Source: Pengzhenrongella frigida
GTDB taxonomy: Bacteria > Actinomycetota > Actinomycetes > Actinomycetales > Cellulomonadaceae
Reading direction: 5' to 3'
Assembly (NCBI RefSeq): GCF_004168625.1
Contig: NZ_SDWW01000001.1
Span: 101,501 to 133,500 of the forward strand
Length of the DNA stretch: 32,000 nucleotides
Shown here: positions 6,070 through 26,037 of the stretch, piece after piece
How positions within the stretch are numbered: the first letter of the stretch is position 1
How the letters are laid out: every line of letters begins with the position of its first letter
Position numbers and translations under genes: made by a program
Notes under the pieces: generated by a model
Seen by the model: the letters and a program-made list of their open reading frames with translations, nothing else
The model's database searches: none
Told to the model about the DNA's origin: nothing

Positions 6070-6079
6070 GCACGAGCAG

Positions 6080-8375: not shown

Positions 8376-8379
8376 GGGC

Positions 8380-8407: not shown

Positions 8408-8416
8408 CCCCGCTGG

Positions 8417-8432
8417 ATACCCATGGGGGTAT
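8417..8432. promoter_or_regulatory. CsoR/RcnR-family-type operator candidate ATACCC-ATGG-GGGTAT
   Basis: An AT-flanked C/G-tract palindrome overlaps a TATAGT -10-like hexamer (8430-8435). It lies 36 nt upstream of the 8468 start. It resembles the ATACCC...GGGGGTAT sites that I recall for CsoR. Confidence 0.45.
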
Positions 8433-8467
8433 AGTTCGGCACCGGTTGACCAACGAGGAGGACAAAC

Positions 8468-8638: not shown

Positions 8639-8644
8639 CCGCGC

Positions 8645-9976
8645 TCAGGCGTCGGCGGACGCCGCCGTCGCCGTGACGGCGTCGTCGCGCGTCCGGACCG
8701 CAAGGCCCGGGATCGCGCGACCGAAGGCCACGAGCCGGTACACCGTGTAGCCGGCGAGGCCGAGGCTGACGACCGCGAACAGCGCGACGACCACCGGGTT
8801 CGTCACGGGCCACGCGAACCAGATCGTCGCGAACAGGTAGCCGAGCCCGAGCCAGAAGCAGGACCCGATCAGCCGGAATGTCGGCGTCCAGCCCATGATG
8901 TACGCCTTCATGAGCACGTCGGTGAGCCAGCTGCCGCGCACGGGTAGCAGCGACATCGCCTTCGACGTGATCGTCAGGGGCCCGATGGCCTCGGTGGAGC
9001 GCGACGTCCCCGAGAGCGCCTCACCGGCGTAGCTCGGGCGCAGCGACCGGGCGAAGTACACGAACGACAGCGCAGCGAGCGGCCAGGCGGTGAGGGCGAA
9101 CATCCCGACGATCCAGCCGAAGAGCAGCGCGAGCGGCGGGCCGAGCAGGACGACGACCAGGATGAGCTTGAGCGGGTTCGCCTGGAGGTCCACGATGCCG
9201 GCGGCGGCCGAGAGCGGCGTGTCCGCCAGCCCGATCGGATGGCGGTCGGAGAGGGCGATGGGCAGCGCGGCGGCCATCGCCAGGATGATGAGCCAGAGCG
9301 CGACCCAGATCGTGCCCATGGCGAAGTAGCCGAAGGGCCGCAGGATCAGCCGCGACACCGGCAGGCGCTCCCCGGGCTGCAGCGTGCGGGCTGGCCCGCG
9401 CACCGCGCTGATGACCGATCCCCAGCCGACACCCGCCAGGATCGCGCAGACGCCGATGAGGATGCCGTACATCGCGCCGCCGGCGACGGTGTCGTCCACC
9501 TCGTAGTTGCGGTACGCCACCCCGGTCGACCAGAGCACCGCGAGGGTGACGAGCGCGGCCGTGAAGACGGCCCCGGCGAGGCCGAACATGAGCAGGGTGG
9601 AGTGGTGCCGGACGCGGGCACGGAAGGCCGCCCGGCTGGCGCCACCGATCGGCAGGTTGGACAGCAGGCCGATGCCCCCGACGAGGATCGCGAACACGCC
9701 GGCAGCCAGCGGGACCACCGACCCCGCGCTCCACGCCCCCGGACCCGCCAGGACCCAGCCGGCGCGATCGGCCCCGCCGCCGAGTCGACCGGGCATCGGT
9801 GAGCCCTGCGCACCGAGCCAGACCAGATACAGCCCGACGACGACGGCGGCGCCGCGCAACGCGAGCCCGAAGGGCGGCATCGGCCCCTCGTTCGGCGCCT
9901 TCTCCCGCGACCCGCGCGACGCGGTATCGCCCGGCGGGACGTCCTGGTCCGGCCGTGCGCGGTGATCGGTTGCCAT
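8645..9976 (-). CDS. Polytopic integral membrane protein of unknown function (443 aa, about 10 TM)
   Basis: This is ORF 8645..10051, trimmed to MATDHRARPDQD... with an AGGAG upstream of the ATG at 9976. GC3 is high and there are many hydrophobic helices. I recognise no family signature. Confidence 0.7.
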   Translation of the reverse strand: MATDHRARPDQDVPPGDTASRGSREKAPNEGPMPPFGLALRGAAVVVGLYLVWLGAQGSPMPGRLGGGADRAGWVLAGPGAWSAGSVVPLAAGVFAILVGGIGLLSNLPIGGASRAAFRARVRHHSTLLMFGLAGAVFTAALVTLAVLWSTGVAYRNYEVDDTVAGGAMYGILIGVCAILAGVGWGSVISAVRGPARTLQPGERLPVSRLILRPFGYFAMGTIWVALWLIILAMAAALPIALSDRHPIGLADTPLSAAAGIVDLQANPLKLILVVVLLGPPLALLFGWIVGMFALTAWPLAALSFVYFARSLRPSYAGEALSGTSRSTEAIGPLTITSKAMSLLPVRGSWLTDVLMKAYIMGWTPTFRLIGSCFWLGLGYLFATIWFAWPVTNPVVVALFAVVSLGLAGYTVYRLVAFGRAIPGLAVRTRDDAVTATAASADA

Positions 9977-10216
9977 GGTGACTCCTGGTGCGGGAAGGGT
10001 TCGCGACGGCTCGCGCGCAGCGAACACGCACCTCAGACCGCTAGGGCGCACAAAGGTTAACCGACCGATCCGCCAGCGGCGGCCCGTCTGGTTGGCGCGG
10101 CGGACGCGGGAACAGCGGCGTGACGAGCCGGTCTTCGTCGAGCCGGTCCAGCCGCGCGGGTTCCGTCTCGCGATCGCTAGGCTCGCCCCAGGTCCACTCT
10201 CCCAAGGAGGTCCGGC

Positions 10217-10267
10217 ATGCCGCTGACCTGCATGCCGTCGACCTGGCCCCGGCGGAGGACCGCGTGA
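10217..10267 (+). CDS. Candidate 16-codon leader ORF (MPLTCMPSTWPRRRTA) coupled to the CDF gene
   Basis: AAGGAGG (10204-10210) lies 6 nt before the ATG at 10217. Its TGA stop (10265-10267) overlaps the GTG start at 10264 as GTGA. Confidence 0.3.
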   Translation: MPLTCMPSTWPRRRTA

Positions 10268-11214
10268 GCGGCGGTGCGCCCTCCGGTGCGCCCTCTGCGG
10301 CGGGCCCCGCCGTCGGGAACGGACCGCCGGGAGAGCAGCGGGCCCTCATCGAGTCGATCGTCGGCGCGGGCGTCCTCGGCCTCCTCGCGCTCGGCTGGGG
10401 CGTCGTGGCGCAGTCGCGCGTCCTTCTCTTCGACGGCGTGTTCGTCCTGCTCGGCATCGTGCTGTCAGCCCTGTCACTGATGGCGGCACGCGCGGCGGGC
10501 TCCGCTCCCACCGCACGGTTTCCCTTCGGCAAGCGGGCCGTGACACCGCTCGCGATCGCCATCCAGGGCGCAGCGCTGCTCGGCACGCTCGTCTACGCGG
10601 CCGCTGACGCGGTCGCCATCGTGATCGCCGGCGGGTCAGACGTCGCCGCGACCACCGTGGTGATCTACGGGCTGATCTCGATGGTGAGCTCGTACGGGTT
10701 GAGCCGTTGGCTGTCTCGCCGGGCACCGAGATCCGAGCTCGTGACGGCCGAGGTGGTGCAGTGGCGGGCCGGCGCTCTGCTGAGCCTCATGTACGCGGTG
10801 GGCGCGGGACTCGCGCTCGCCCTCGGCCTATGGGTCCCGGAGGAAGCCCTGCGCTACCTCGACCCCGGCCTGGTCCTGCTGGCGAGCGCTCTCCTCGCGC
10901 CGATACCGCTGCGCCTGCTGCGGGCGGCGGGGCTCGAGCTCTTGGAAGCGGCACCCCCGGCCGAGGTGACGGCTGCGCTCGGCGCCGCTATCGCCGCCGT
11001 GAGCGCGGAGTTCGGTCTCGATGCCCCGTTCGTCCGCGCAACGAAGCTCGGCGAACGGCTCTACGTCGAGGTGGACTTCGTCGTGCCCGCGGGGGTGTGG
11101 GACGTCTCCGGAGAGGATCGTGTGCGGCGGGGTCTCATCAGCCGGCTCGAGCCGCTCGGCTACGAGCTGTGGGCCAACGTCGAGCTCACCACCGATCCCG
11201 CGCTGGCCACCTAG
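10264..11214 (+). CDS. Cation diffusion facilitator (CDF)-like transporter
   Basis: This is ORF 10120..11214, trimmed to the GTG at 10264, which has its own GGAGGA (10254-10259). CDF hallmarks are present: six N-terminal TM helices, FPFGKRAVTPLAIAIQGAAL, and a C-terminal alpha/beta domain (ATKLGERLYVEVDFVVP). Confidence 0.75.
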   Translation: MSGGAPSGAPSAAGPAVGNGPPGEQRALIESIVGAGVLGLLALGWGVVAQSRVLLFDGVFVLLGIVLSALSLMAARAAGSAPTARFPFGKRAVTPLAIAIQGAALLGTLVYAAADAVAIVIAGGSDVAATTVVIYGLISMVSSYGLSRWLSRRAPRSELVTAEVVQWRAGALLSLMYAVGAGLALALGLWVPEEALRYLDPGLVLLASALLAPIPLRLLRAAGLELLEAAPPAEVTAALGAAIAAVSAEFGLDAPFVRATKLGERLYVEVDFVVPAGVWDVSGEDRVRRGLISRLEPLGYELWANVELTTDPALAT

Positions 11215-11263
11215 GGCGCTCGCAGGCTCACCGGCCGATCCGGCAGGTGGCACATCGGCAGCC

Positions 11264-11626
11264 CTACGGGTGCGCCGGCTCCGGGGGAACCCGTGCCGGG
11301 TAGTTCGCTACGAGGTCGGTGTCGGCACCGATGACCCCGAAGGCCGCCGCGCCGCCGGGAGCGCCCAGCGGTTCGCTGCGCCCGGGCAGCGGCTCGTCGA
11401 AGAAGAGCGCGTTGTCGGCCAGGAACGGGCCGAACGCGCTCGGCAGGTCGTCCTCGTAGAAGATGGCCTCCACCGGGCAGACGGGTTCGCACGCACCGCA
11501 GTCGATGCACTCCGTCGGGTTGATGTACAGCGATCGTTCGCCCTCATAGATGCAGTCGACCGGGCACTCCTCGACGCAGGCTCGGTCCAGCACGTCGATG
11601 CACGGCGCGCCGATCACGTAGGTCAT
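11264..11626 (-). CDS. fdxA: 7Fe ([3Fe-4S][4Fe-4S]) ferredoxin, FdxA-type
   Basis: [62 protein letters not shown] shows the classic actinobacterial FdxA cysteine pattern. Confidence 0.9.
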
Positions 11627-11748
11627 CGCACTCCTCCAGCTGCCTCCGGTGCGCGACAGGGTGAGGTCCAGCGCCCTTCGCGGGGACGGCGGCGCGCCTC
11701 AACCGAAGAAGGGCAGGGGCCCGTCGAGGCGACGCCGCCGCGATCAGT

Positions 11749-11770
11749 TTATACGACTTTTCTCGTATTA
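11749..11770. promoter_or_regulatory. AT-rich inverted repeat TTATACGA-cttttc-TCGTATTA
   Basis: The arms match at 7 of 8 bp. It lies directly after the nirK stop (11773-11775) and about 125 nt upstream of the fdxA start. Its AT content is conspicuous in this GC-rich DNA. Confidence 0.3.
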
Positions 11771-11772
11771 AC

Positions 11773-14442
11773 TCAGTCGGTCACGGCGAGGATGCCGTGG
11801 GCGCCGCGCTCGGCGTCGACCATGCGGTGCGAGACGAACGGGTAGTGGCCGGCCTCGGGCATCACGAGCTCGACGAACCCGCCCTGCGCGGGCTGCAGCC
11901 CGAGGACCTGCGCCCCGCCGGTCTCTCCTGCCCCGGCGCGCGGGCCGCCGAGCTGGTAGGCACCCTCCAGGAAGACCGTGTCGAACTGACCGCCCACGAC
12001 ATGGAAGGCCGAGGACCGGTTGGGCCCGGCGTCGAGCACCCAGATCCGGACCCGCTCCCCCACCCGCGCGGTCAGGGGCCGGCGGTCGTACTGGTTCGGG
12101 TACCCGTTGAACGCCACCGCGTCCGGCGACTCGGCGGCGATCAGGGCGGGGTCGGCGATGTCACCCTGCGGCCCGAAGTACTGCTCGGACTGCACCAGGA
12201 CGTACTCCCGGTCCACCGCCGGCAGGTCGGGCGGGTCGATGATGACCGCCCCGAACATCCCGTTCGCGATGTGCAGGGACATCGGCATGGTGGCGCAGTG
12301 GTACATCCAGATCCCCGAGCGGGTCGCGGTGAACCGATAGGTCAGCTCCTCCCCCGGTTCGATCGTGCGCATCGGCCCGTCGGGGGCGAGCGCACCGGCG
12401 TGGAAGTCGATCGAGTGCCCGATGCTGCCGTCGTTGACGAGCGTGATCTCGAACATGTCCCCGACCCGTCCGCGCAGCACCGGCCCCGGCGCGGTGCCAC
12501 CGAACGTCCAGATCGTCTGACGGACCCCCGGCGCGACCTCGGTCTCGACCTCCTCGACCACCAACCGCTCGCGGTGCACGGTCGGCTCCGCCGCGGGGGC
12601 GAGCACCGCGTCCCGCAGGGCGGCGTCCGGGCCGGGTTCGGCCTGCAGGTCCAGGTCGTCACCCGCAGAGTCAGCACTCGCCGCATCACCTGCATCACCG
12701 GCGTGGCCCGCATCGTGCTCGCTCGCGGTCGACCCGTCGGCGCTGCCGCCGAGGACCACCACGTCGAAGACCATCCCCATCTGCCGGTGCCCGGCGATGG
12801 AGCACCACCCGGCCAGGTCGCGGCCGACGACGCCGACCTCGACCCGTGTGGTCGCGTGCGGCGCGAGTCGGCCCGAGCCGCCGCCGGAGTCCAGGACGAG
12901 ATCGTGCACGCTGGCGTCGGTGTTGGTCACCACGAGCACAAGCTCGTCGCCGGCCTGGACCTGGACCGAGGACGGGACGAAGCGCATGTCCCGGGCCTCG
13001 ACCGCGATCTCGACCACCGTGCCGGACGGCTGGACCCCGTCGGCCGCTGCGGCCCCCAGACCGACGCTCGCCGGGTCGGCCGCGATCCCCGCCACCACCA
13101 CCAGGGCGAGGGCCGCCCCGGCCGCGATCGACTGGCCCCGACGCCCCCGACGCCGCCCCACCTGTTCGGCGGGCACGGCGGCCGGCCCACCGGGCGGCCC
13201 GACGACGGGCATCGGCCCCGCCGGCCGCGGCCGGCGGGAGACCACGGCCACCCGCACGAGCAGCACCGGGGTCCAGATCAGGGCGCCGAGCACGAGCATG
13301 GACGCCCCGACGCGCAGCAGGCTGGGGCCCGGGAGCAGGCACAGCGCCAGGCCACCGTTGACCAGGACGAGCCGCGCGGGACCGCCCCGGTCGGCGATCG
13401 CATTCGTGGCCCGGACCACCGCGGGGCCGCCGCCCAAGATCATCGGCACGAGATAGCTGAGCGACCCGAGCAGCACCTGCGCCGCAAAGCCGACCGCGAG
13501 CGGAGCGAGCAGCGCCCCGACCCGGACCTCGGCAGCCGGCCAGCTCGCCGCGGTGGCCAGCATGACCGTCCACGAGAGCACGGATCCGCACAGCCACACC
13601 CACGCGGCGGCCACGGACCAGGTCGCGAACGACGACGGCGCGCGGCGCCGGGCCTCGCCGACCAGCGGCGCAGCCGTACGGGCCAGCCCCGACGCATAGA
13701 GGCCCACGCCCGCCGCAGCGAGCCCGAGCATGCCGGTCGCGGCGCCGGTCACGACCACGGCCAGCCCCGATCCCAGGGCGACCAGGCCCTGTCGGGCGGC
13801 CCGCTCGGCACCGGGTTCCACCCGCACGCGGAGCATCGTGGGCCACAGCGTGACGAGGGTGCCCATGACGGTCAGCCCGATCCAGCCGAGCAGCATGGTC
13901 GCCAGGTGCGCGACGTACAGGCGCGCGTGCGCCGAGCCGTCGGATCGGGCAAGGAGGACGCCGAGGGCGATCCCGACCGGCAAGGTCAGCGCGGCCGCCA
14001 CGAAGTACGACGTCGTCCAGCCGAGGGAGGAGGCCAGCGCGCGGCGGCCCTGGTCCCAGAGCACGACGGCGTGCCAGCCCACCACCAGGGCGACCAGCAC
14101 CGACCCGATCACCACCACGGTCGACCTGCCGGTGGACATCCCGACGATCGTCGTCACCGCGCCGACCGTGTGTGCCGCGAGGCGGATGGCCTGATCGCGA
14201 TGGCCACCGCGCAGCGGCCGGCGCCGCACCGCCTCGGCGAAGTGGGCGCTCCAGATGAGGATCGCGGCGCTGACCGCACCCAGGAGCAGCAGGTGAACCA
14301 TGAGCCACCGCGCGTCGGGCACCCCGCGGTGCCCGATCGCGACAGCAGCACCCGCGACCAGCCAGCCGAGCACGATGGCGTTCACCCGGAGGTGCCAGCG
14401 GGATCTCACGCGACCACCTCGGCGCCCGACGGCTCGGTGCAT
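11773..14442 (-). CDS. nirK: Copper-containing nitrite reductase (NirK) fused to an N-terminal polytopic membrane domain and a cupredoxin domain
   Basis: This is a single 889-aa ORF. Residues 1-455 contain about 12 hydrophobic helices. Residues 473-563 are a cupredoxin with H513, C547, H552 and M557. Residues 620-889 are the NirK core: GHSIDFH, YHCATMPMSLHIANGM, AFHVVGG and VSHRM. Confidence 0.9.
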   Translation of the reverse strand: MHRAVGRRGGRVRSRWHLRVNAIVLGWLVAGAAVAIGHRGVPDARWLMVHLLLLGAVSAAILIWSAHFAEAVRRRPLRGGHRDQAIRLAAHTVGAVTTIVGMSTGRSTVVVIGSVLVALVVGWHAVVLWDQGRRALASSLGWTTSYFVAAALTLPVGIALGVLLARSDGSAHARLYVAHLATMLLGWIGLTVMGTLVTLWPTMLRVRVEPGAERAARQGLVALGSGLAVVVTGAATGMLGLAAAGVGLYASGLARTAAPLVGEARRRAPSSFATWSVAAAWVWLCGSVLSWTVMLATAASWPAAEVRVGALLAPLAVGFAAQVLLGSLSYLVPMILGGGPAVVRATNAIADRGGPARLVLVNGGLALCLLPGPSLLRVGASMLVLGALIWTPVLLVRVAVVSRRPRPAGPMPVVGPPGGPAAVPAEQVGRRRGRRGQSIAAGAALALVVVAGIAADPASVGLGAAAADGVQPSGTVVEIAVEARDMRFVPSSVQVQAGDELVLVVTNTDASVHDLVLDSGGGSGRLAPHATTRVEVGVVGRDLAGWCSIAGHRQMGMVFDVVVLGGSADGSTASEHDAGHAGDAGDAASADSAGDDLDLQAEPGPDAALRDAVLAPAAEPTVHRERLVVEEVETEVAPGVRQTIWTFGGTAPGPVLRGRVGDMFEITLVNDGSIGHSIDFHAGALAPDGPMRTIEPGEELTYRFTATRSGIWMYHCATMPMSLHIANGMFGAVIIDPPDLPAVDREYVLVQSEQYFGPQGDIADPALIAAESPDAVAFNGYPNQYDRRPLTARVGERVRIWVLDAGPNRSSAFHVVGGQFDTVFLEGAYQLGGPRAGAGETGGAQVLGLQPAQGGFVELVMPEAGHYPFVSHRMVDAERGAHGILAVTD

Positions 14443-14481
14443 GCCGAGCCGCGCGGGCCCCTGCTGGTCACGTCCGGCGGG

Positions 14482-14844
14482 TCAGGCTGCGGTGCGGCGC
14501 GTGAAGCTGAGCCGCCAGGCCTCCGGGCCGCGCTCGAGGTAGCTGACCGTGAACTCGTCCGGCCAGCGCTGCTCGATCTGCGCGAGGAGCGGGAGCGGGT
14601 CGTGCGGGGCGACCAGGATCAGGCCGGCGCCGGGTGCGATCGAGTCGAGCGCCCCGAAGATGGTGGCGTGCCGGATCGCGTGCGGAACCGTGCGCGCATC
14701 CAGCTCCGGGTACTGCGGGCCGTCCACCTCGCCGCAGGTGCAGCTCCCGCCGCACCCGGCCTCCGCGGTGCCGTCGGCGAGGGCTTCGGCCTCGTTCGCG
14801 GCGATGGCCTCGGCCTCGTTCGAGGCGATGACGACGTCCTTCAT
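14482..14844 (-). CDS. DUF2249 domain protein
   Basis: This is the C-terminal 120 aa of ORF 14482..15699, starting at MKDVVIASNEAEA with a GGAGGA Shine-Dalgarno. It carries LDARTVPHAIRHATIFGALDSIAPGAGLILVAPHDPLPLLAQIEQRWPDEFTVSYLERGPEAWRLSF, the DUF2249 pattern. The N-terminus has CGGSCTC. It ends 39 nt upstream of nirK. Confidence 0.8.
   Translation of the reverse strand: MKDVVIASNEAEAIAANEAEALADGTAEAGCGGSCTCGEVDGPQYPELDARTVPHAIRHATIFGALDSIAPGAGLILVAPHDPLPLLAQIEQRWPDEFTVSYLERGPEAWRLSFTRRTAA
14782..14829 (-). repeat. In-frame 24-bp tandem duplication (22 of 24 identical) in the DUF2249 gene
   Basis: ggcttcggcctcgttcgcggcgat is followed directly by ggcctcggcctcgttcgaggcgat. These encode IASNEAEA and IAANEAEA. 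Confidence 0.85.
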
Positions 14845-14976
14845 GGTGATCCTCCAGCTCAGCGGCGCGACCGGCCACACGGGTGCGGCCGCGGAGACTG
14901 GCGACCTCCACCGGATATTACTACAATCAACTCCGTGGAAAATAACCCGTGGTCGCGAACCCCGGCGAGCACCGGC

Positions 14977-15687
14977 ATGGGGCCTCGCCCGGCGGTCGCC
15001 ATCGCTGCTTCCGGGTCGACCCCGTCGCTGTCGACCTCGCGTCGCGCGCTGCTGGCGACCCTGCGCTCGCAACCCGGACCCGTCACCCTCACCGCCCTGG
15101 GCGCAGCCACCGGGCTGCACGTCAACACCGTGCGCGAGCACCTGGCCGCCCTCACCGACGCGGGTCTGGTGACGCGCGGCCGCGCCGCGCCGCACGGCCG
15201 GGGGCGTCCGGCTGCGACCTACACGGCGTCGACCGACCCGGCGACGGGGTCCGAGCCGGCCCCCGTCAGCGCGGAGTACGCCGGGCTCGCGGCCGCGCTC
15301 GCCTCCACGATCCACCGCACGAGCAGCTCCCCCAGCCACGACGCCACCGTCGCGGGCACCGAGTGGGGCCGGGAGCTCGCCCGCAACCGGCCAGGCCCTC
15401 CCCCCGCCGACGACGTCGATCCGCGCGGCCGGGTCGTGCAGCTCCTCGCCGACCTCGGCTTCGCCCCGCGGCCCGCCGACGGGCCGCCCGCCGTGCTGCT
15501 CACCCGCTGCCCGCTGCTGGAGACCGCGCACGCCTACCCCGACGTGGTCTGCGCCGTGCACCTCGGCATCGTGCGCGGCGCGCTCGGCGAGTTCGGCGCC
15601 GACCCCGCGGGCGCCGAGCTGCACCCGTTCTCGGATCCCGGCGCCTGCCGGCTCGACCTGGCCCGCACCGACCGGGTCCCGCGATGA
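14977..15687 (+). CDS. Winged-HTH (ArsR/SufR-like) transcriptional regulator with a C-terminal Cys3His motif, paralog 1
   Basis: This is the last 236 aa of ORF 11797..15687, from the ATG at 14977. The HTH reads LTALGAATGLHVNTVREHLAALTDAGLV...GRGRPAATY. The C-terminus has C178-x13-C192-x2-H195-x28-C224. It is divergent from the DUF2249-nirK pair. Confidence 0.75.
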   Translation: MGPRPAVAIAASGSTPSLSTSRRALLATLRSQPGPVTLTALGAATGLHVNTVREHLAALTDAGLVTRGRAAPHGRGRPAATYTASTDPATGSEPAPVSAEYAGLAAALASTIHRTSSSPSHDATVAGTEWGRELARNRPGPPPADDVDPRGRVVQLLADLGFAPRPADGPPAVLLTRCPLLETAHAYPDVVCAVHLGIVRGALGEFGADPAGAELHPFSDPGACRLDLARTDRVPR

Positions 15688-16463
15688 CCGCGACCGCACC
15701 GACCCACGGCGGCTCTCAGCGGAGCCGGCCGCCGAGCCCCGCCAAGCGCCGGCTGCGAAAGTACCTCCCGCCGCAGCACGGCGCCTGGGCGATGCTGCTC
15801 GTCCCGTTCCTGGTCGCGCTGGTCACCGCCGGCGTCGACTGGGTGCAGGTCCCGCTGCTCCTCGCCTGGCTCGCCGGGTACCTGCTGTCGTACTACGCGT
15901 TCCTCGCCCTCAAGACCCGACGCCCGGCGCGGGTGCTCCCCCAGCTGCGCCTGTACGCGGCCCTCACGGTGCCCGCCGCCCTGGTGGTGGTCGTCCTGCG
16001 ACCGGCGGTCCTCTGGTTCGCGCCCGCCTACGCCGCCCTGCTCGCGGTGAACGCCTGGTACGCCTGGCACCACCGCGATCGCGCCCTGACCAACGACCTC
16101 GCCTCGGTGGTCCAGGGCTGCCTGATGGTCCCGGTCGCCGCCACCGTGGCGGGGGTGTCACCGGTCGCCGTGCTCGAGCCGTTCGTGGTCGTGCTGCTGT
16201 ACTTCCTCGGCACCGTGCTGTTCGTCAAGACGATGATCCGCGAGCGCGGCGACGAGAGCTTCCTGCGCGGATCGATCGCCTTCCACGTGGTGGCGGCGGT
16301 CCTGGCCGGTCTCCTCGCCTGGCCGTTGGCCATCCTGTTCGTCTGGTTCGCCGTGCGTGCGGCCTGGCTGCCGCGCTACGCGATGACGCCGAAGTCCGTC
16401 GGGTTCGTGGAGATCGGCAACTGCGTGGCGCTCCTCGGAGCGATCGCCCTGCTCGCCGGGTAG
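15684..16463 (+). CDS. YwiC-like family membrane protein
   Basis: This is the C-terminal 259 aa of ORF 14949..16463. It carries KYLPPQHGAWAMLLVPFLVALV plus about 8 TM helices. Its ATG overlaps the regulator's stop as ATGA. Confidence 0.75.
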   Translation: MTATAPTHGGSQRSRPPSPAKRRLRKYLPPQHGAWAMLLVPFLVALVTAGVDWVQVPLLLAWLAGYLLSYYAFLALKTRRPARVLPQLRLYAALTVPAALVVVVLRPAVLWFAPAYAALLAVNAWYAWHHRDRALTNDLASVVQGCLMVPVAATVAGVSPVAVLEPFVVVLLYFLGTVLFVKTMIRERGDESFLRGSIAFHVVAAVLAGLLAWPLAILFVWFAVRAAWLPRYAMTPKSVGFVEIGNCVALLGAIALLAG

Positions 16464-16487
16464 CCGCGGCAGTGCGGGGCAGCCGCG

Positions 16488-18461
16488 TCAGCGCCGGGCG
16501 GGTTCGGTGGCCCGCCTGGCGTTGTTCCGCACGAAGGCCACGGGGGCGCCGGCCGCGGCGGGGGTGTGGCTCTGCGTGCGGCTGCGGAGCAGTCGCATGG
16601 CGTTGAGGATGACGACCAGGACCGACACCTCGTGCACGAGCATCCCGGCCGCCATCGTGACCCCGCCGACCAGGACCCCGAGCAGCAGCAGCGACACGGT
16701 GGCCAGTGCGACGGCGATGTTCTGGTGCATGTTCGCCACCGTCCGGCGCGCGAGCCGGATGGCCTCGGGCAGCTTCAGCAGGTTGTCGGCCATCAGGGCG
16801 ATGTCGGCCGTCTCGAGGGCGACGGCCGATCCGGCCGCGCCCATGGCGACCCCGAGGTCGGCGACCGCCAGCGCGGGGGCGTCGTTGACGCCGTCGCCCA
16901 CCATGGCCACGACGTAGCCCGCGGCCTGCAGCTCACGGACGACATCGAGCTTGTCCTGCGGCAGCAGCCCGGCCCGCACCTCGTCGACGCCGGTGGCCTC
17001 ACCCACGGCGACGGCGACCGGCATGGCGTCCCCCGTGAGCATGACGACCTTGCGCACGCCCGCCCGGCGCAGCTCGCCGACCATCTGCGCGGCGTCGGGG
17101 CGGACCTCGTCGGCGACGGCGACCACGCCGACCACGACGCCGTCGACCGCCACGATCATCGGGGTGCGGCCCGCGACGGCGAGGTCATGGGCCACCTGGC
17201 CGCTCCCCCGGTCGTCAGCCACCCCGAACTGGGTCAGCAGGGCGAGGTTGCCGACGAGCAGGCGATGTCCCCCGCTGGTCGCCGTGATGCCCTTGCCCGG
17301 GATGGACTCGGTGACCTCGGGCAGCCGGTCGGTGGGCAGCCCCTCGGAGCGGGCCGCGTCCAAGACCGGGCGCGCCAGGGGGTGCTCGGAGCCCGCCTCG
17401 GCCAGCGCGGCCCAGCCCAGGACGGCGGCGCGATCCGCGTCCGGGCCGAGCACGACGACGTCGGTCAGCCGCGGGCGACCGCGAGTGAGCGTGCCGGTCT
17501 TGTCGACGGCGACCGCGGTGATCTTCGCCGACTTCTCCAGGTACTCCCCGCCCTTGATCAAGATGCCGTCCTTGGCCGCGCGGCCGATGCCGGCCACGAT
17601 CGAGACCGGGATGGAGATCACCATCGCCCCCGGGCAGCCGATCACGAGCAGGGTCAGCGCCAGGACGACGTCCCCGGTGAGCACCCCCGCCACGACCGCC
17701 AGCACGATGATCGCGGGCGTGTACCAGGCGGAGAACCGGTCCATAAAACGCTGCGTCCGGGCCTTGGCGTCCTGCGCCTCCTCGACGCGATGGATGATCC
17801 GCGCGAGCGTCGTGTCGGCCCCCACCCCGGTCGCCCTCACCTGCAGCAGGCCGCCACGCGAGACCGTGCCGGCGAACACCTGGTCCCCGACCGCCTTATC
17901 CACCGGGATCGACTCCCCGGTGATCGAGGCCTGGTCGACGGCACCGGTCCCGGCGAGGACCTCGCCGTCGACCGGCACCTTCGCGCCGTTCTTGACCAGC
18001 ACCGTCTCGCCCATGGCGACAGCGGCGGCGGCCACCTCGACCTGGCCGCCGTCGCGCAGGACGACGGCGACGTCCGGTGCGACGGCGACCAGCTCAGCCA
18101 GGGCAGACCGGGTCCGGCTCAGCGTCGCCTGCTCCAGGGCGTGGCCGACGGCGAACAGGAACGTCACCGCGGCCGCCTCCCAGTACTGACCGATCACCAC
18201 CGCACCGATGGACGCCACGGCGACGAGCAGGTCGATGCCGATCACCCGCGCCAGCAGCGCGCGGACCGCGTGCAGGGCGATCGGGGTCCCCGCCACGACG
18301 GCGGCCAGGGCCATCACCGTGTCGCCGGCGACCCCGGCCCCGGCCAGGCCGGTGATGGCGGCCGAGCCCGCGATGAGCAGCCCGCTCACCGCGGGGATCC
18401 CCCACCGGCCGTGCAACCCCGCGTGCAGCTCGGTGTGCAACCTGGTGTGCAGCGTTCTCAT
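16488..18461 (-). CDS. Heavy-metal translocating P1B-type ATPase (atypical CPG transmembrane motif, no fused HMA domain)
   Basis: This is ORF 16488..18857, trimmed to MRTLHTRLHT with an AAGGAG Shine-Dalgarno. It carries TGES, DKTGTLT, SEHPLA and GDGVNDAPAL. TM4 reads LLVIGCPGAMVISIP. It has eight predicted TM helices. Confidence 0.9.
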   Translation of the reverse strand: MRTLHTRLHTELHAGLHGRWGIPAVSGLLIAGSAAITGLAGAGVAGDTVMALAAVVAGTPIALHAVRALLARVIGIDLLVAVASIGAVVIGQYWEAAAVTFLFAVGHALEQATLSRTRSALAELVAVAPDVAVVLRDGGQVEVAAAAVAMGETVLVKNGAKVPVDGEVLAGTGAVDQASITGESIPVDKAVGDQVFAGTVSRGGLLQVRATGVGADTTLARIIHRVEEAQDAKARTQRFMDRFSAWYTPAIIVLAVVAGVLTGDVVLALTLLVIGCPGAMVISIPVSIVAGIGRAAKDGILIKGGEYLEKSAKITAVAVDKTGTLTRGRPRLTDVVVLGPDADRAAVLGWAALAEAGSEHPLARPVLDAARSEGLPTDRLPEVTESIPGKGITATSGGHRLLVGNLALLTQFGVADDRGSGQVAHDLAVAGRTPMIVAVDGVVVGVVAVADEVRPDAAQMVGELRRAGVRKVVMLTGDAMPVAVAVGEATGVDEVRAGLLPQDKLDVVRELQAAGYVVAMVGDGVNDAPALAVADLGVAMGAAGSAVALETADIALMADNLLKLPEAIRLARRTVANMHQNIAVALATVSLLLLGVLVGGVTMAAGMLVHEVSVLVVILNAMRLLRSRTQSHTPAAAGAPVAFVRNNARRATEPARR

Positions 18462-18790: not shown

Positions 18791-18992
18791 GATCGGACCT
18801 CTTTCGATGGTGCGGCTCGCCCCGTTCGAGGCGACTGACCCTGACGTTTCCAGGCACCCGGCGAAGCGAACATGACGTGGGTCAATCAACGGCACATCGG
18901 CGTGGGATCGACGTGCGTCGGCGGGGTCGGGGACCTCGCCGGGGAGCGCGCCGGACCGGGGCGATACGCTCGCGCTGAGCCCAGGAGTCGAT

Positions 18993-19838
18993 GTGAACCC
19001 CCCGCACGCCAGCCCCCAGCCCGACGGCCATCAGCACGACGAGGCCGGACCGACCAGCCCGCCGTCGGCCCGTCGGCGGATCCCGTTGCGGGCGACCTGC
19101 GCCGAACCGCACCAGTGCCCGGCGCCGGTCCGGATGCGCGTGCTGGGCCACGTCTCGCTCTTCGCCGGGCTCTCGACCACCGAGCTCGAGGCCATCGACG
19201 CCCGGATGGTCTCGCTCTCCTGGGCCGCCGGGGACGTGCTGTTCTCCGCCGGAGCGCCTGCGGACCACCTCTACGTCCTGGCCTCGGGCCGCGTGAAGCT
19301 CTCCCGGCCGACCGTCGTCGGGCGGGAGATCGTCGTCGACCTGCTCACCCCCGGCGACCTCTTCGGGACCTTGACGGCCCTCGGGGACCCGACCTATCCG
19401 GAGACGGCGGAGGCTCTCACCACGACGTGCGCCCTGCAGATCGACCCCGCCGCCTTCCGCGCGGTGCTCACCGAGCACCCCCCGGTCGCCTTGCGGGTGC
19501 TCGACGACGTCGCGGCCCGCCTCACCCGGGCCCGCTCCGACCTGGGCCACCACTCCACGGACACCGTGGCGCAACGCGTGGCCGCCACGCTTCTGCGCCT
19601 GGCGGACAAGCTCGGCCAGGAGCGCGCCGGCGACGGCGGCACGCTGCTGCAGATCCCGCTCTCCCGCGCCGACCTCGCTGGGATGACCAGCTCGACTCCC
19701 GAGTCCGTGTCCCGCGCCATGAGCCAGCTGCGCAAGGACCGGATCATCGACTCGGGGCGCCGCTGGACCGCCGTCCTGGACCGACCCCGCCTGGCCGACG
19801 TCGCCGCGGGCGCCGATGGACCGGCAGCCCCGGCCTGA
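18993..19838 (+). CDS. Crp/Fnr family regulator, FNR-like (N-terminal Cys pair, E--SR recognition helix)
   Basis: The GTG at 18993 is preceded by AGGAG. A cNMP-binding-like beta-roll is present (LFAGLSTTELEAIDARM...GDLFG). The HTH reads LSRADLAGMTSSTPESVSRAMSQLRKD. The candidate ligand residues are C36, H40, C42 and C146. Confidence 0.85.
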   Translation: MNPPHASPQPDGHQHDEAGPTSPPSARRRIPLRATCAEPHQCPAPVRMRVLGHVSLFAGLSTTELEAIDARMVSLSWAAGDVLFSAGAPADHLYVLASGRVKLSRPTVVGREIVVDLLTPGDLFGTLTALGDPTYPETAEALTTTCALQIDPAAFRAVLTEHPPVALRVLDDVAARLTRARSDLGHHSTDTVAQRVAATLLRLADKLGQERAGDGGTLLQIPLSRADLAGMTSSTPESVSRAMSQLRKDRIIDSGRRWTAVLDRPRLADVAAGADGPAAPA

Positions 19839-19845
19839 CCTGCTC

Positions 19846-19909
19846 GGCTGCTGCGCTGGCCGGCTGCTGCGCTGGCCGGCTGCTGCGCTGGCTGGCTGCT
19901 GCGCTGGCC
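19846..19909. repeat. 16-bp x4 tandem direct repeat (GGCTGCTGCGCTGGCC) filling the convergent intergenic gap
   Basis: The units are 19846-61, 19862-77, 19878-93 (one mismatch) and 19894-909, followed by a partial fifth unit that runs into the cupin stop codon. Confidence 0.9.
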
Positions 19910-19911
19910 GG

Positions 19912-20259
19912 CTACCGCGCCCGGGCGGGCTCGGCGGTGCGCTCCACGCCCGTGACGGTGGTGAGCAGGAACACCGAGTCCGCCTCCGCCAGCACGGCGT
20001 GACGCAGGTGCGTGAGCAGGGCGACCTCGCCGGCGACCAGGGCGGCGGTCTCCACCCCGGTGACGCGCAGCCGGCCCACCAGGACCTGCAGGCTCGCCGC
20101 GTGGGGGGAGTTGTGCTCGGCGAGCTCGGTGCCGGCCACCAGCGCGATCAGGGTCTGCCGCAAGGGTCCGTCGTGCAGCAGCAGCTCGGCGCTGCGGCCG
20201 TGGTCCGCCGCACGGGCGGCGTCGAGGTGGGACTGGGCGAGAAGGTTGAGATTGGCCAC
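19912..20259 (-). CDS. Small cupin-domain protein (115 aa)
   Basis: The GTG at 20259 is preceded by GGAGGA. It carries HGRSAELLLHDGPLRQTLIALVAGTELAEHNSPHAASLQVLVGRLRV, a single cupin barrel pattern. Confidence 0.65.
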   Translation of the reverse strand: MANLNLLAQSHLDAARAADHGRSAELLLHDGPLRQTLIALVAGTELAEHNSPHAASLQVLVGRLRVTGVETAALVAGEVALLTHLRHAVLAEADSVFLLTTVTGVERTAEPARAR

Positions 20260-20330
20260 AATTCCTCCGGAAGCGGTCTGAGCCTGCGGCCCGCGCCTGC
20301 GGCACGAGCGGAGCGTGGGAAACTTCTCCT

Positions 20331-21032
20331 ATGCCCGCCTCGAGGTCTGGACTCCCCCGTCGGGTCCTGGCAAGTCGCCGCCGAGCCGAGCTCCTGCAGC
20401 TGCTTCGCGAGCATAACGACGCCCTGAGCGTCGCCGAAATCGCGACCGAGATCGGCATGCACGGCAATACCGTGCGAGGACATCTGGACGCACTCGTCGA
20501 GTCAGGGCACGTCGAGCGGACCACCGACGCCCGCGGCACCCCCGGTCGTCCCCGTCAGGTCTACTCGGCCACCGGGGCCCCGTCCGCCGACCGTGACTAC
20601 CGCCTGCTCGCAGACATCCTGACCGACCACCTGGCCGCCGCCAACCCCGATCCGGGCCGCGTCGCCCTGGCCGCCGGCCGGAGCTGGGCACTGGCGAACA
20701 AGCCGCACTCCGCACCGCCACCTCGGCTGGCCCCCACGACCAGCACCGGTGCCCCCGGCGAGCCGCCGGACGCCCTCGAGCCGGTGCTTCGCATGCTCTC
20801 GGCCGCGGGGTTCGCCCCGGAGCTCGCCGAGGATCGGTCCGTCATCCGCTTGCGGCACTGCCCGTTCCGCGAGCTTGCCGCGCGCAACGCGGCGGTGGTG
20901 TGCCAGGTGCACCTCGGGCTGATCCAGGGCTCCCTGGCGTGCCAGGACACGACCGTCGAGGCGACCCAGATCGCCCCCTTCGTCGAGCCCGGGCTCTGCC
21001 TGGTGACCCTGACCAGCGCGTCCGCGATCTGA
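20331..21032 (+). CDS. Winged-HTH (ArsR/SufR-like) transcriptional regulator with a C-terminal Cys3His motif, paralog 2
   Basis: The 233-aa product has the HTH SVAEIATEIGMHGNTVRGHLDALVESGHV...GRPRQVY. Its C-terminus has C177-x13-C191-x2-H194-x28-C223, the same spacing as the 14977 gene. It lies directly upstream of norB. Confidence 0.75.
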   Translation: MPASRSGLPRRVLASRRRAELLQLLREHNDALSVAEIATEIGMHGNTVRGHLDALVESGHVERTTDARGTPGRPRQVYSATGAPSADRDYRLLADILTDHLAAANPDPGRVALAAGRSWALANKPHSAPPPRLAPTTSTGAPGEPPDALEPVLRMLSAAGFAPELAEDRSVIRLRHCPFRELAARNAAVVCQVHLGLIQGSLACQDTTVEATQIAPFVEPGLCLVTLTSASAI

Positions 21033-21119: not shown

Positions 21120-21147
21120 AGTTGTTCACAATTCCACTGTGAAAACT
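21120..21147. promoter_or_regulatory. Inverted repeat AGTTGTTCACA-attccac-TGTGAAAACT upstream of norB
   Basis: The core is TTCACA-N7-TGTGAA (perfect 6-bp arms). It extends to 10-11 bp with a one-base bulge. It is AT-rich and lies about 150 nt upstream of the norB GTG. Confidence 0.4.
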
Positions 21148-21252: not shown

Positions 21253-21270
21253 CATGAACGACTTTTCATG
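21253..21270. promoter_or_regulatory. Inverted repeat CATGAA-cgactt-TTCATG proximal to the norB start
   Basis: There are perfect 6-bp arms, 24 nt upstream of the norB GTG and just before its AGGAG Shine-Dalgarno. Confidence 0.3.
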
Positions 21271-21293: not shown

Positions 21294-23690
21294 GTGGCAC
21301 GGACGACGCCTGAAACGGGACAGCTGGGCAAGCGCTCGGAGCTGCTGGTCTCGAAGGGGTGGATCCAGGGCGTCGCCCTGGTGATGCTCTTCGGATTCTT
21401 CATCATGGGTCTGCTGGCCCTGCGCACGTACACCGACTCCATGCCCCAGCCCACGCAGGTGGTCGACTCCCAGGGCGAGGTCGTGTTCTCCGGTGCGGAC
21501 ATCACCGCCGGTCAGCAGATCTTCCTGCGCCGAGGCCTGCAGCAGTACGGCTCGATCGTGGGCCACGGCGGGTACCTCGGCCCGGACTACACCACCGACT
21601 ACCTGCGCCGCTCGTCGCTGTTCATCCTCGACGAGCTCACCGCCTCCGGCATCCAGGACCCTCGCGGCGAGCTGGTCAAGGTCATGCGGACCAACCGGTA
21701 CGACGCGGACACCGGGACCCTGGTGCTGACCGATCTGCAGGTGCGGGCGTTCGAGGACGTCAAGGGTCACTACGCGGACTTCTTCGGCTCGCCGACCACG
21801 CAGTACGGGTTGCTCCCGAACGTGATCACCAACCCCGCTGACATCAACCAGCTGACGGCGTTCTTCGCCTGGACCGCCTGGGGCGCCGCCGCCGAGCGCC
21901 CGGGGCACGACTACTCGTACACGAACAACTGGCCCCCCGAGAAGCTCGTCGACAACACCCCCACCGCCGACCTGCTCGTGTGGAGCGCGCTGTCCCTGGC
22001 CGCGCTGCTCCTGGGCACCGGGGTGCTGTTCGCCCTGTACGGCCGCTGGAGCAAGAGGATCGGCTGGCAGAACGCCGAGGCGCCGCCGTTGTCGTTCAGG
22101 CAGCCGGGCGAGGTCGCGGTGACTCCCGCCCAGCGGGCCACCGCCTGGTTCTTCTTCGTGGTCGCGCTGCTCTTCCTCGGCCAGGCGCTGCTCGGCGCCG
22201 CCGCCGAGCACTACCGCGCCGACCTCACCAGCTTCTTCGGCCTGGACCTCGCGCGGATCCTGCCGTTCAACATGGCCCGCACCTGGCACGTCCAGCTGTC
22301 CCTGTTCTGGACCGCGGCGTCGTTCCTGGCCGCCGGGATCTTCATCGCCCCGTACGTCTCGGGCCGCGAACCCAAACGACAGCACTGGTTGGCGTACGGC
22401 CTGCTCGGTGCCATCGCGCTGGTCGTCGTCGGCTCCATGACCGGCGAGGCGCTGAGCATCTTCGGCGTCGAGTGGGCCAAGGGTTCCCCGCTGTGGGACC
22501 AGCAGTGGGAGTACCTCGACCTGCCCAAGGTCTGGCAGGGCCTGCTGACCGTCGGGATGTTCTTGTGGATCGCGATCATCTACCGCGGGATCCGCGCCCG
22601 GCTGAAGACCGAGAACCGGGCGAACCTGCCCTGGCTCTTCTTCTACTCGGGCCTGGCCATCCCCGGCTTCTACGCCGTCGGCATGCTGGCCGGCACCGAG
22701 ACCCAGCTGACGGTCGCCGAGTTCTGGCGCTTCTGGGTCGTCCACCTGTGGGTGGAGGACTTCCTGGAGCTCTTCACGACCGTGATGGTGGCGTACATCT
22801 TCGTCATGCTCGGCGTGATCCGCCGCCAGATCGCGATGACGATCATCTTCCTCGACGTCATCCTGTACTCCGCCGGTGGCGTCATCGGCACCATGCACCA
22901 CCTGTACTTCTCCGGCACGCCGGTCGAGCACATGGCCCTGGGGTCGGTCTTCTCCGCCCTGGAGATCATCCCGCTGACGTTCCTGACCATCGAGGCGTGG
23001 AGCTTCCTCCAGCTCGGAGCGCGACAGCAGTCGCGCAGCGCAGCTCCTTTCCCGCACCGGTGGGCGGTGATGTTCCTGGTCGCCGTCGGATTCTGGAACT
23101 TCCTCGGCGCCGGGGTGTTCGGGTTCCTGCTCAACCTGCCGATCGTGTCCTACTACGAGATCGGCACGGCGCTGACGGCCAACCACGCCCACGGTTCGAT
23201 GATGGGCGTCTACGGGATGATGGGCGTGGGCCTGTCCCTGTTCGCGCTGCGGTACCTGATCCCCGCACGCCGCTGGCCCGACCGGCTCGCGAAGATCTCG
23301 TTCTGGTCGCTCAACATCGGCCTGGCCTGGATGGTCTTCGCCACCCTGCTGCCGCTCGGCATCATCCAGCTGTGGCACTCCGTCAACGACGGGTACTACG
23401 AGGCCCGCTCGCTGGCGTTCATCAACACCCCGGGGAACGCCGTCCTGGAGTGGCTGCGGATGCCCGGCGACCTCATCTTCATCGGCGGTGGCGTGCTGCC
23501 GTTCCTGTGGATCACCTGGCTCGGGGTGCGGTACCGGATCACGGCGACCACGCACGTCGTGCCGCAGGAGACGCTCTTCGTCGAAGAGGTCCCGGTCGCG
23601 GTGGGAGCCGGCGACCCGCTGACCCCGAAGTACGGGTCGGACGGCCGTACCGACCGCGACGGCGGGCAGGGCCTGGACCGGGAGCCCTGA
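21294..23690 (+). CDS. norB: Quinol-dependent nitric oxide reductase (qNOR, single-subunit NorB/NorZ type)
   Basis: The 798-aa product has the N-terminal qNOR extension (GWIQGVALVMLFGFFIMG...ITAGQQIFLRRGLQQYGSIVGHGGYLGPDYT). This is followed by a heme-copper oxidase subunit I-like 12-TM core with conserved His (HHLYF, HAHGSMMG). Confidence 0.92.
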   Translation: MARTTPETGQLGKRSELLVSKGWIQGVALVMLFGFFIMGLLALRTYTDSMPQPTQVVDSQGEVVFSGADITAGQQIFLRRGLQQYGSIVGHGGYLGPDYTTDYLRRSSLFILDELTASGIQDPRGELVKVMRTNRYDADTGTLVLTDLQVRAFEDVKGHYADFFGSPTTQYGLLPNVITNPADINQLTAFFAWTAWGAAAERPGHDYSYTNNWPPEKLVDNTPTADLLVWSALSLAALLLGTGVLFALYGRWSKRIGWQNAEAPPLSFRQPGEVAVTPAQRATAWFFFVVALLFLGQALLGAAAEHYRADLTSFFGLDLARILPFNMARTWHVQLSLFWTAASFLAAGIFIAPYVSGREPKRQHWLAYGLLGAIALVVVGSMTGEALSIFGVEWAKGSPLWDQQWEYLDLPKVWQGLLTVGMFLWIAIIYRGIRARLKTENRANLPWLFFYSGLAIPGFYAVGMLAGTETQLTVAEFWRFWVVHLWVEDFLELFTTVMVAYIFVMLGVIRRQIAMTIIFLDVILYSAGGVIGTMHHLYFSGTPVEHMALGSVFSALEIIPLTFLTIEAWSFLQLGARQQSRSAAPFPHRWAVMFLVAVGFWNFLGAGVFGFLLNLPIVSYYEIGTALTANHAHGSMMGVYGMMGVGLSLFALRYLIPARRWPDRLAKISFWSLNIGLAWMVFATLLPLGIIQLWHSVNDGYYEARSLAFINTPGNAVLEWLRMPGDLIFIGGGVLPFLWITWLGVRYRITATTHVVPQETLFVEEVPVAVGAGDPLTPKYGSDGRTDRDGGQGLDREP

Positions 23691-26020: not shown

Positions 26021-26037
26021 GCTCGAAGGATAGGGCC

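Follow-up and report, generated by a model that had tools for sequence, protein, structure and literature searches.

ArnR from Corynebacterium glutamicum (Cgl1185/NCgl1138), the subject of earlier work (Nishimura 2008 and 2014), is a dimeric repressor that carries one [4Fe-4S] cluster per subunit and controls narKGHJI and hmp (PMC12343034). The cluster is O2-tolerant, and with any one of its three cysteines changed to alanine the protein has neither the cluster nor the ability to bind DNA; reaction with one molecule of nitric oxide (NO) per cluster yields a di-nitrosyl dimer and abolishes binding to DNA (PMC12343034). A conserved histidine has been suggested as a possible fourth ligand, and a Bet3-like fold family was reported for the protein by Crack et al. 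2025 (PMC12343034). The nar genes of C. glutamicum are under the joint control of ArnR and the CRP-type regulator GlxR. We have analyzed a 32,000-nucleotide stretch of the Pengzhenrongella frigida genome (contig NZ_SDWW01000001.1; hereafter the window, with a G+C content of 72%) that contains two paralogous genes of this kind, paralogue 1 (reg1) and paralogue 2 (reg2), adjoining the genes of a copper nitrite reductase (nirK) and of a quinol-type nitric oxide reductase (qNor, encoded by norB), respectively. Both products are probably ArnR-type [4Fe-4S] NO-responsive repressors that act on the nirK and qNor promoters, and from the sequence these two genes are predicted to be new targets of ArnR-type regulators.

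A recent preprint assigns ArnR to the SufR-like COG2345 family (bioRxiv 10.64898/2025.12.26.696629). In the cryo-electron microscopy structure of SufR from Mycobacterium tuberculosis the cluster is held by C179, C192, E195 and C220. At the position of E195, more than 96% of COG2345 members have Glu, His, Asn, Asp or Cys. The structure also reveals that a GRP AT-hook in the wing of SufR reads A/T tracts on either side of a loosely specified palindrome (bioRxiv 10.64898/2025.12.26.696629).

Two ArnR-like proteins and their candidate cluster ligands

The two genes and the segments of their products considered here are the following.

14935..15687, plus strand: reg1, ArnR-like regulator, 250 amino acids from a revised GTG start (gene callers and the preliminary description of this DNA begin at ATG 14977, giving 236 amino acids)
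20331..21032, plus strand: reg2, ArnR-like regulator, 233 amino acids, from its translation and homology to ArnR
15031..15228, plus strand: winged helix-turn-helix (wHTH) of reg1, matched by Pfam HTH_20, HTH_IclR and MarR_2, with the recognition-helix motif LHVNTVREHL
15202-15210, plus strand: GRP AT-hook in the wing of reg1 (G76-R77-P78), invariant in the alignments
15508..15648, plus strand: ligand block of reg1, C178, C192, H195 and C224 (C-x13-C-x2-H-x28-C), in the columns of ArnR C179, C193, His and C223
20859-20999, plus strand: ligand block of reg2, C177, C191, H194 and C223, with spacing identical to reg1 and residues invariant in 27 orthologues

Both open reading frames are genuine genes in these frames, as judged from codon-position GC profiles. 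The preliminary description had presented the products as two paralogous wHTH regulators that align end to end, and the alignment bears this out (approximately 228 residues, 32% identity, E 2e-25), as it does the positions, nucleotide coordinates and identical spacing of the four candidate ligands. Against C. glutamicum ArnR (NP_600411.1, from the supplementary data of the SufR preprint; bioRxiv 10.64898/2025.12.26.696629), BLASTP returned E 1e-20 for reg1 (26% identity over 217 residues) and E 2e-22 for reg2 (29% over 224 residues). ArnR residues C179, C193 and C223, together with the histidine of its CAIH motif, share alignment columns with the four candidate ligands of both paralogues. Actinobacterial SufR is much more remote from the two proteins (E 1e-6 to 0.013, with E 1e-6 for reg1), and a Cellulomonas fimi protein included in the COG2345 set of the preprint is 37% identical to both of them. 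On sequence comparison, reg1 and reg2 belong to the ArnR branch of the SufR-like COG2345 Fe-S family. The proposal that they represent a family distinct from NsrR, NnrR and DNR holds with regard to the distinction, but the family is a known one and not unassigned; it, its cofactor, its response to NO and the conserved histidine have already been published, and no new type of sensor is described here. The relatives of each paralogue in the protein collection number well over 1,000, and none has more than a generic name.

The resemblance to ArnR extends to the length of approximately 230 residues, the domain order, the HxNTxRxHL helix, the GRP wing motif, the GF-P motif and the CP...VC.(I/V)H.G...PG.C block with its aligned three cysteines and histidine, as well as to the predicted Bet3/TRAPPC-like C-terminal fold and the linkage to genes of N-oxide respiration or detoxification. 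By contrast, the identity is only 26–29%, the final spacer comprises 26 residues in ArnR and 28 in the paralogues, and the targets narKGHJI and hmp are replaced by linked nirK/DUF2249 and qNor genes. The nar genes of the window adjoin an NsrR-like gene instead of an ArnR-like one, the ArnR operator TAWTTAAWTA differs from the (T/C)AC-N9-10-GTG core with A/T tracts predicted here, and genomes with the paralogues carry two or more copies.

SufR of M. tuberculosis and cyanobacteria has the same architecture, consisting of a wHTH with a GRP AT-hook, a dimerization helix and a [4Fe-4S] sensory domain, and follows a common ligand pattern of Cys, Cys-x2-(E/H) and Cys. The fourth ligand position is nevertheless Glu in SufR and His here, the first spacer is C-x12-C as opposed to C-x13-C, the recognition helix reads GVRRHL and not NTVRxHL, and no suf operon is found near the paralogues. 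The predicted operators resemble those of SufR in having a palindromic core with flanking A/T tracts. NsrR, of the Rrf2 family, and NnrR and DNR, of the CRP/FNR family, share with the paralogues the proposed role of an NO-responsive switch of nir, nor, nar and hmp genes, and NsrR also holds a [4Fe-4S] cluster with three cysteines and a non-cysteine ligand. Their folds are unrelated to that of the paralogues, however, and separate Rrf2 and CRP/FNR genes are present in the window. Assignment of either paralogue to these families was rejected, with a Pfam Rrf2 match at E 0.23 that covers the HTH only and no match to cNMP_binding.

Conservation was counted in 174 distinct relatives drawn from 167 loci. 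All 174 have C178 and C192, 173 have H195 (the single exception being Asn), and 172 have C224, the remaining two sequences being truncated. The check for conservation of the three cysteines and the histidine that had been proposed beforehand thus gives 172 to 174 of 174 at every position. The GRP motif is invariant in all 174 relatives and the HxNT residues are kept in 172–174. Across alignments of 26, 27 and 42 sequences, the 27 being reg2 orthologues, the invariant residues are H48, N50, T51, H55, G76-R77-P78, G161-F162, C178-P179, C192, H195 and C224. Accordingly, the shared HTH, GRP, GFAP and C-terminal motifs noticed in the two proteins recur almost unchanged in their relatives, as H-x-N-T-x-R-x-H-L, GRP (residues 72–74 in reg2), GF(A)P and CP...VVC.VHLG. 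By homology to ArnR, an Fe-S cluster is the most likely occupant of the Cys3-His site and NO its most likely signal, and the conservation of the histidine in 173 of 174 relatives is strong evidence that this residue is probably the predicted fourth cluster ligand. Of the Fe-S, metal and thiol chemistries previously considered for the sensor, homology favours Fe-S and NO; no positive evidence for copper or a thiol mechanism emerged.

Pfam and NCBIfam recognize only the N-terminal winged HTH, and the C-terminal half gives nothing significant beyond faint signals for V4R (Pfam, E 0.11), MsvR (NCBIfam, E 0.046) and SufR. An AlphaFold2 model (mean pLDDT 87) consists of the wHTH, long central helices and an alpha/beta C-terminal domain; the wHTH of reg1 comprises helices 20–31, 38–45 and 49–61 and strands 65–70 and 79–84. 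A search of the Protein Data Bank (PDB) with Foldseek matched the N-terminus to wHTH proteins and the C-terminal domain to the TRAPP subunit TPC6 (2bjn_B; 143 columns, target-normalised TM score 0.62, E 8e-3), which is a modest fold match. No SufR or ArnR structure was found by this fold search of the PDB, nor by sequence searches of the same database with single sequences and a family profile, which returned generic wHTH proteins only. The topology of the C-terminal domain is thereby shared with the V4R/Bet3-TRAPPC group (MsvR, TRAPPC3, TRAPPC6). The members of this group show no significant sequence similarity to the paralogues; their known ligands are Zn, palmitate or aromatic compounds, or they rely on thiol switches, as opposed to a demonstrated NO-sensing cluster.

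Gene neighbourhoods and candidate operators

A scan of species-representative genomes yielded at least 585 ArnR-like loci. The best 80 are all of the paralogue-1 type (45–81% identity) and come from Pengzhenrongella, Sanguibacter, Nocardioides, Streptomyces, Kribbella, Pedococcus, Brevibacterium and others; a more distant reg2-type set comprises 80 loci (38–61% identity). Individual loci are referred to by L numbers, L001 being Pengzhenrongella phosphoraccumulans. The surroundings of reg1 in the window are as follows.

14482..14844, minus strand: DUF2249 gene, 120 amino acids (Pfam DUF2249, E 2.3e-26), divergent from reg1, with nirK 39 nucleotides further on
11773..14442, minus strand: NirK-like multidomain copper nitrite reductase, 889 amino acids (Pfam Cu-oxidase_3, Cu-oxidase_2 and Cupredoxin_1)
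15684..16463, plus strand: YwiC-like membrane protein gene (Pfam YwiC, E 1.6e-39), overlapping the reg1 stop codon at 15684-15687
14914..14945, plus strand: conserved reg1 promoter and candidate operator, GATATTACTACAATCAACTCCGTGGAAAATAA, two A/T tracts around TAC-N10-GTG in the region shared with the divergent DUF2249-nirK genes

The arrangement is that previously described, with reg1 divergent from DUF2249-nirK and coupled through ATGA to the YwiC-like gene. The DUF2249 gene is probably the first of a DUF2249-nirK operon. The C-terminal 270 or so residues of the NirK-like protein (618–887) match TIGR02376 Cu_nitrite_red with E 9.5e-46, below the curated cut-off. A NirK-like gene, detected by tblastn, lies within 8 kb of the reg1 orthologue in 55 of the 80 loci, and the divergent neighbour is a DUF2249 or hemerythrin-DUF2249 gene in 59. 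By gene clustering, narG is present in 19/80 and narK in 14, and in all 71/80 have an N-oxide-related neighbour (nirK, nar or hemerythrin/DUF2249); linkage to the YwiC-like gene occurs in only 2/80. L001 is syntenic with the whole island. This adjacency of reg1 to nirK/DUF2249, tight and phylum-wide, argues for a functional link.

Reg1-type genes usually have as their divergent partner a gene in which a hemerythrin HHE domain is fused to DUF2249 (e.g., at 7066-7941 of L005); the window has the DUF2249 part alone. We take this fusion to be reminiscent of the NO-induced iron-centre repair proteins RIC/YtfE/ScdA. Two further genes accompany nirK.

11264-11626, minus strand: small 4Fe-4S ferredoxin gene downstream of nirK
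10120-11214, plus strand: CDF cation-efflux gene near nirK

Homologues of the ferredoxin are found beside reg2-type regulators in 11/80 metagenome loci. In L166 (Cellulomonas sp. KRMCY2, positions 1-16678), two ArnR-like paralogues occupy one island, one of them adjoining narK-narG and the second divergent from DUF2249 with a TTGTTTTTAC-N10-GTGGAAAAT site; a NirK-like gene and a complete set of clustered genes for molybdenum-cofactor biosynthesis are also present there. From this island it seems that Cellulomonadaceae-like genomes commonly carry several ArnR-like paralogues in one denitrification island.

The 32-bp reg1 element, with the consensus ATTTTAyTACAsT-N4-yCCGTGGAAAATAAT, is present in 78 of the 80 upstream regions of reg1-type loci, as a rule once per locus and 30–150 bp from the start of a DUF2249, hemerythrin or narK gene. 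A position weight matrix (PWM) built from the other loci scores the window element at 55.4, and every other site of the window stays at 12 or below; YAC-N10-GTGRAAA is found a single time in the window against 0.01 expected. The element holds a -10-like TACAAT and a GTG start codon, which is in frame and stop-free in 78/78 orthologous loci despite a spacing to the HTH that ranges from 45 to 61 codons. The N-terminus M-E-N-N encoded from this GTG is conserved. At codon 2, 58 of the 78 loci use GAA and none uses GAG, and at codon 3, 57 of the 78 use AAT, whereas GAA accounts for only 10% of Glu codons and AAT for only 3.6% of Asn codons across these loci. Because such rare codons are so frequent at positions 2 and 3, the A/T tract is concluded to be under selection at the nucleotide level. 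The frame and stop codon given for reg1 in the preliminary description stand, but the gene almost certainly starts at GTG 14935, 42 nucleotides before the annotated ATG 14977. The TACAsT sequence ends 7 nucleotides ahead of the GTG, TGGCGA is found 17 bp upstream, and a Shine-Dalgarno sequence is lacking; from this geometry we infer that the reg1 promoter yields a leaderless mRNA. A scan for E. coli-type sigma-70 promoters and terminators was empty in both intergenic regions, and the promoter assignment therefore relies on TACAsT conservation and the leaderless geometry.

The features surrounding reg2 are listed below.

21294..23690, plus strand: qNor (norB), 798 amino acids (Pfam NorB_cytochrome_c-like, E 6e-53; COX1, E 7e-51)
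19912..20259, minus strand: 115-residue protein, divergent from reg2, with no Pfam or NCBIfam match (PDB sequence 1yhf, E 0.15)
21121..21147, plus strand: candidate operator in the gap between reg2 and norB, GTTGTTCACAATTCCACTGTGAAAACT, with TTCACA at 21125-21130 and TGTGAA at 21138-21143
20303..20323, plus strand: possible degenerate site upstream of reg2, CAC-N9-GTGGGAAAC, weak, with the right half kept and the left T-rich tract missing

Reg2 does lie immediately upstream of norB, whose product has the two qNor domains. A gene divergent from reg2 is indeed present, but its description as a cupin could not be confirmed; it is 93% identical beside reg2 in L161, L162 and L163. The qNor gene lies directly downstream of reg2 in all orthologues of at least 70% identity with sufficient contig (the window, L001, L161 and L162), and most of these loci also keep the divergent 115-residue gene and an upstream CRP/FNR gene. 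The co-occurrence proposed for the two regulators is thus found for nirK at most reg1-type loci and for qNor at close reg2 orthologues, and it is rare for qNor at distant reg2-type loci.

Upstream of norB, the arms of TTCACA-N7-TGTGAA (21125-21143) are identical in the window, L001, L081, L161 and L162, with a variable 7-nucleotide spacer. At other reg2-type loci, the consensus TTGTTTyTAC-N9/10-GTGAAAAC, i.e., with G(T/G)GAAAAC as the right half, is found 8–10 nucleotides before the start of the reg2-type gene; in the window it is matched between reg2 and norB. YAC-N9-GTGRAAA occurs once in the window against 0.02 expected, and the loose pattern YAC-N9/10-GTGRAAA, which was partly derived from the same data, has exactly two window sites, the reg1 element and the norB site. 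Both share the layout of the M. tuberculosis SufR operator, AATTTTGTCTACACTGATGTTTGTGAAAATCCC. The PWM of reg1 finds no second site in the window, and by this measure reg1-type and reg2-type sites are not interchangeable. On the basis of this result and of the better fit to the reg2-type consensus, the norB site is tentatively assigned to reg2. The weak candidate upstream of reg2 includes CGTGGGAAACT, conserved in the window, L001 and L081.

Some additional observations concern the reg2 region and its relatives. An inverted repeat, CATGAA-N6-TTCATG (21253-21270), closely precedes the norB ribosome-binding site, within a block near-identical in L001; its spacing fits neither FNR nor CRP, and it may serve as a second regulator site or form a hairpin in the 5'-untranslated region. 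A tandem repeat at 19845-19913 (16-nucleotide unit CGGCTGCTGCGCTGGC, 4.3 copies, 96% match) lies in the convergent gap between the stop codons of the CRP/FNR gene and the 115-residue gene. An Hcp-like hybrid-cluster protein (560 amino acids, identified by eye) is encoded near the reg2-type genes of L093 and L088, and a 7TM-PAS-GGDEF diguanylate cyclase is found beside that of L093 (by Pfam) and apparently that of L088 (same homology cluster only). These neighbours hint at further NO-linked targets of the family.

Other regulators of the island

The preliminary description proposed that the ArnR-like pair control the nirK and norB units separately, and it missed two regulator genes of other families.

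18993..19838, plus strand: CRP/FNR-family regulator, 281 amino acids (Pfam cNMP_binding, E 9e-22; HTH_Crp_2, E 4e-18)
25562-26020, minus strand: NsrR-like Rrf2 regulator, best match NsrR (E 1e-18, below cut-off), with C-x6-C-x5-C
26109-27404, plus strand: narK, divergent from the Rrf2 gene
27489-31190, plus strand: narG (TIGR01580, 1627 bits)

The CRP/FNR gene is placed between a heavy-metal P-type ATPase gene and the reg2-norB unit, and counterparts of 85–89% identity stand beside reg2 in L001, L081 and L161. Its best NCBIfam matches are FixK, FtrB and FnrL, and its N-terminus has the sequence CAEPHQCP; it is a possible co-regulator of the island. Scans for FNR and CRP boxes found none beyond chance upstream of nirK or norB, the sole FNR-like match (18872-18885) being expected in 34% of shuffles. 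The Rrf2 regulator contains the motif DCETPAGNCPLLDGC, and the region between its gene and narK (26021-26108) has AAAACTTGCATTTGAGGTGCTAGTTTT, which resembles an NsrR-type box. From the divergent arrangement of the Rrf2 gene with narK and narG, nar appears here to be paired with NsrR and not with an ArnR-like protein. The view that the nirK and norB units each have their own regulator thus retains the comparative-genomic linkage described above, with the CRP/FNR and NsrR-like proteins as additional candidate controllers.

Proposed mechanism and alternative explanations

In the mechanism that we consider probable, each paralogue would comprise an N-terminal winged HTH with the GRP AT-hook in its wing, a dimerization helix and a C-terminal Bet3/V4R-like sensory domain, in which a [4Fe-4S] cluster would be held by the three cysteines and probably the invariant histidine. 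The cluster-bound dimer would occupy an operator overlapping the promoter, (T/C)AC-N9-10-GTG between A/T tracts, with the AT-hooks and the recognition helices contacting the A/T-flanked site, and would thereby repress transcription. NO would nitrosylate the cluster, perhaps displacing the histidine, and the resulting release from DNA would lead to de-repression. Reg1 would bind at 14914-14945, over its own -10 box and leaderless GTG, and its release would induce nitrite reductase; reg2 would bind TTCACA-N7-TGTGAA at 21125-21143, and its release would induce the NO reductase qNor. The homology, the ligand conservation, the gene linkage and the conservation of the sites are observed; the cofactor, the response to NO, repression and the pairing of each paralogue with its site are predictions made by analogy with ArnR and SufR.

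Several points weigh against this mechanism. The cofactor, the signal and the targets rest on homology to ArnR at 26–29% identity. Control of nirK and norB could lie mainly with the CRP/FNR-type and NsrR-like regulators of the island. The reg1 element may consist in part of promoter and leaderless signals, namely the -10 box TACAAT, the reverse-strand TAAAAT and an A-rich 5' coding end. Among reg2-type relatives below approximately 60% identity, qNor is present in only 2/80 loci and the neighbours are mixed, with nirK, DUF2249, narG/narK, hcp, ferredoxin or molybdenum-cofactor genes adjoining those of 38–61% identity; this mixture indicates that the whole clade is tied to N-oxide metabolism and that the norB link is clade-specific. 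Lastly, the window has no match to the ArnR consensus TAWTTAAWTA even when two mismatches are allowed, which suggests that the operator specificity has diverged from that of ArnR.

Three alternative explanations were weighed against this proposal. It is unlikely that the proteins belong to the same family but that one or both of them sense O2 or redox state, Fe-S status, or Cu/Zn, the duplication then reflecting different inputs. The surroundings are rich in metal-related genes (a heavy-metal P-type ATPase, the CDF transporter and the copper enzyme NirK), relatives with a Bet3/V4R-like fold bind Zn through similar ligands (PMC12343034), SufR reports Fe-S status on the same scaffold, and the paralogues share only 32% identity. 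The four candidate ligands are nonetheless identical in both paralogues and in ArnR, with its NO-sensitive and O2-tolerant cluster, and the neighbours in 160 loci are N-oxide genes (nirK, nar, qNor, hcp, hemerythrin and DUF2249) rather than genes of metal homeostasis, the P-type ATPase being linked in only 3/80 and 6/80 of them. Somewhat more improbable is that the ArnR-like proteins act elsewhere or on themselves, that the DNA elements are promoter and leaderless signals, and that the CRP/FNR regulator, the NsrR-like regulator or both control nirK and norB. The actinobacterial -10 consensus TANNNT is matched by TACAAT and by the reverse-strand TAAAAT, and the 5' coding ends are A/T-rich, a composition that may favour leaderless translation. 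Regulators of the CRP/FNR and NsrR types are the classical controllers of nir and nor genes, and genes for both are found in the island; the co-control of C. glutamicum nar by GlxR points in the same direction. Against this stand the lack of FNR or CRP boxes in excess of chance ahead of nirK and norB, the phylum-wide adjacency of reg1 to nirK/DUF2249, and the norB palindrome itself, whose half-sites are inverted relative to a CRP site and which matches the reg2-type consensus. The reg1 and norB sites, moreover, mirror the layout of an experimentally defined SufR operator.

The third explanation, that the proteins are SufR orthologues serving Fe-S biogenesis or generic ArsR/SmtB metalloregulators, is very improbable. 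It draws on weak matches to the NCBIfam models SufR_cyano (E 0.002-0.005) and HTH_metalloreg (25–28 bits) and on the remote similarity of reg1 to actinobacterial SufR. The scores fall far under the cut-offs, however, at 17–18 bits for TIGR02702 (SufR_cyano) against 178.8, and at 25.6 and 28.1 bits for NF033788 (HTH_metalloreg) against 55, the latter confined to the generic wHTH region. The ligand spacing is C-x13-C-x2-H as in ArnR and not the C-x12-C-x2-E of SufR, ArnR is closer by at least approximately 14 orders of magnitude in E-value, and the window contains no suf genes. SufR in the strict sense and ArsR/SmtB were rejected, and sequence comparison effectively refutes this explanation.

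Beyond the ArnR-type repression proposed here, it is conceivable, albeit doubtful as a whole, that the ArnR scaffold has been duplicated and specialized in Actinobacteria into separate Fe-S sensors, with reg1 for DUF2249-nirK and reg2 for qNor. Each would use its own operator dialect (TAC-N10-GTG versus CAC-N9-GTG), the reg1 operator would be fused to a leaderless start, and the sensitivities to NO, O2 or metal would perhaps differ through the invariant histidine, with the NsrR-like and CRP/FNR regulators operating alongside. If true, this would represent a four-regulator wiring of denitrification that is undescribed for any Gram-positive bacterium in the literature searched.

Literature searches (ArnR with nirK; COG2345) returned no description of nirK- or norB-linked ArnR homologues. 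In comparison with the searchable literature, the phylum-wide link of ArnR-like proteins to nirK, DUF2249-hemerythrin and qNor, the predicted operators and the leaderless start inside the reg1 element appear to be new. ArnR was previously studied only in Corynebacterium, in the control of nar and hmp, whereas the at least 585 loci indicate that ArnR-like proteins are widespread in Actinomycetota. One clade of them is tightly linked to copper nitrite reductase and hemerythrin/DUF2249, and a smaller clade to qNor. The proposal made here provides a first regulatory hypothesis for the poorly understood denitrification genes of actinobacteria, together with operator predictions that can be tested.

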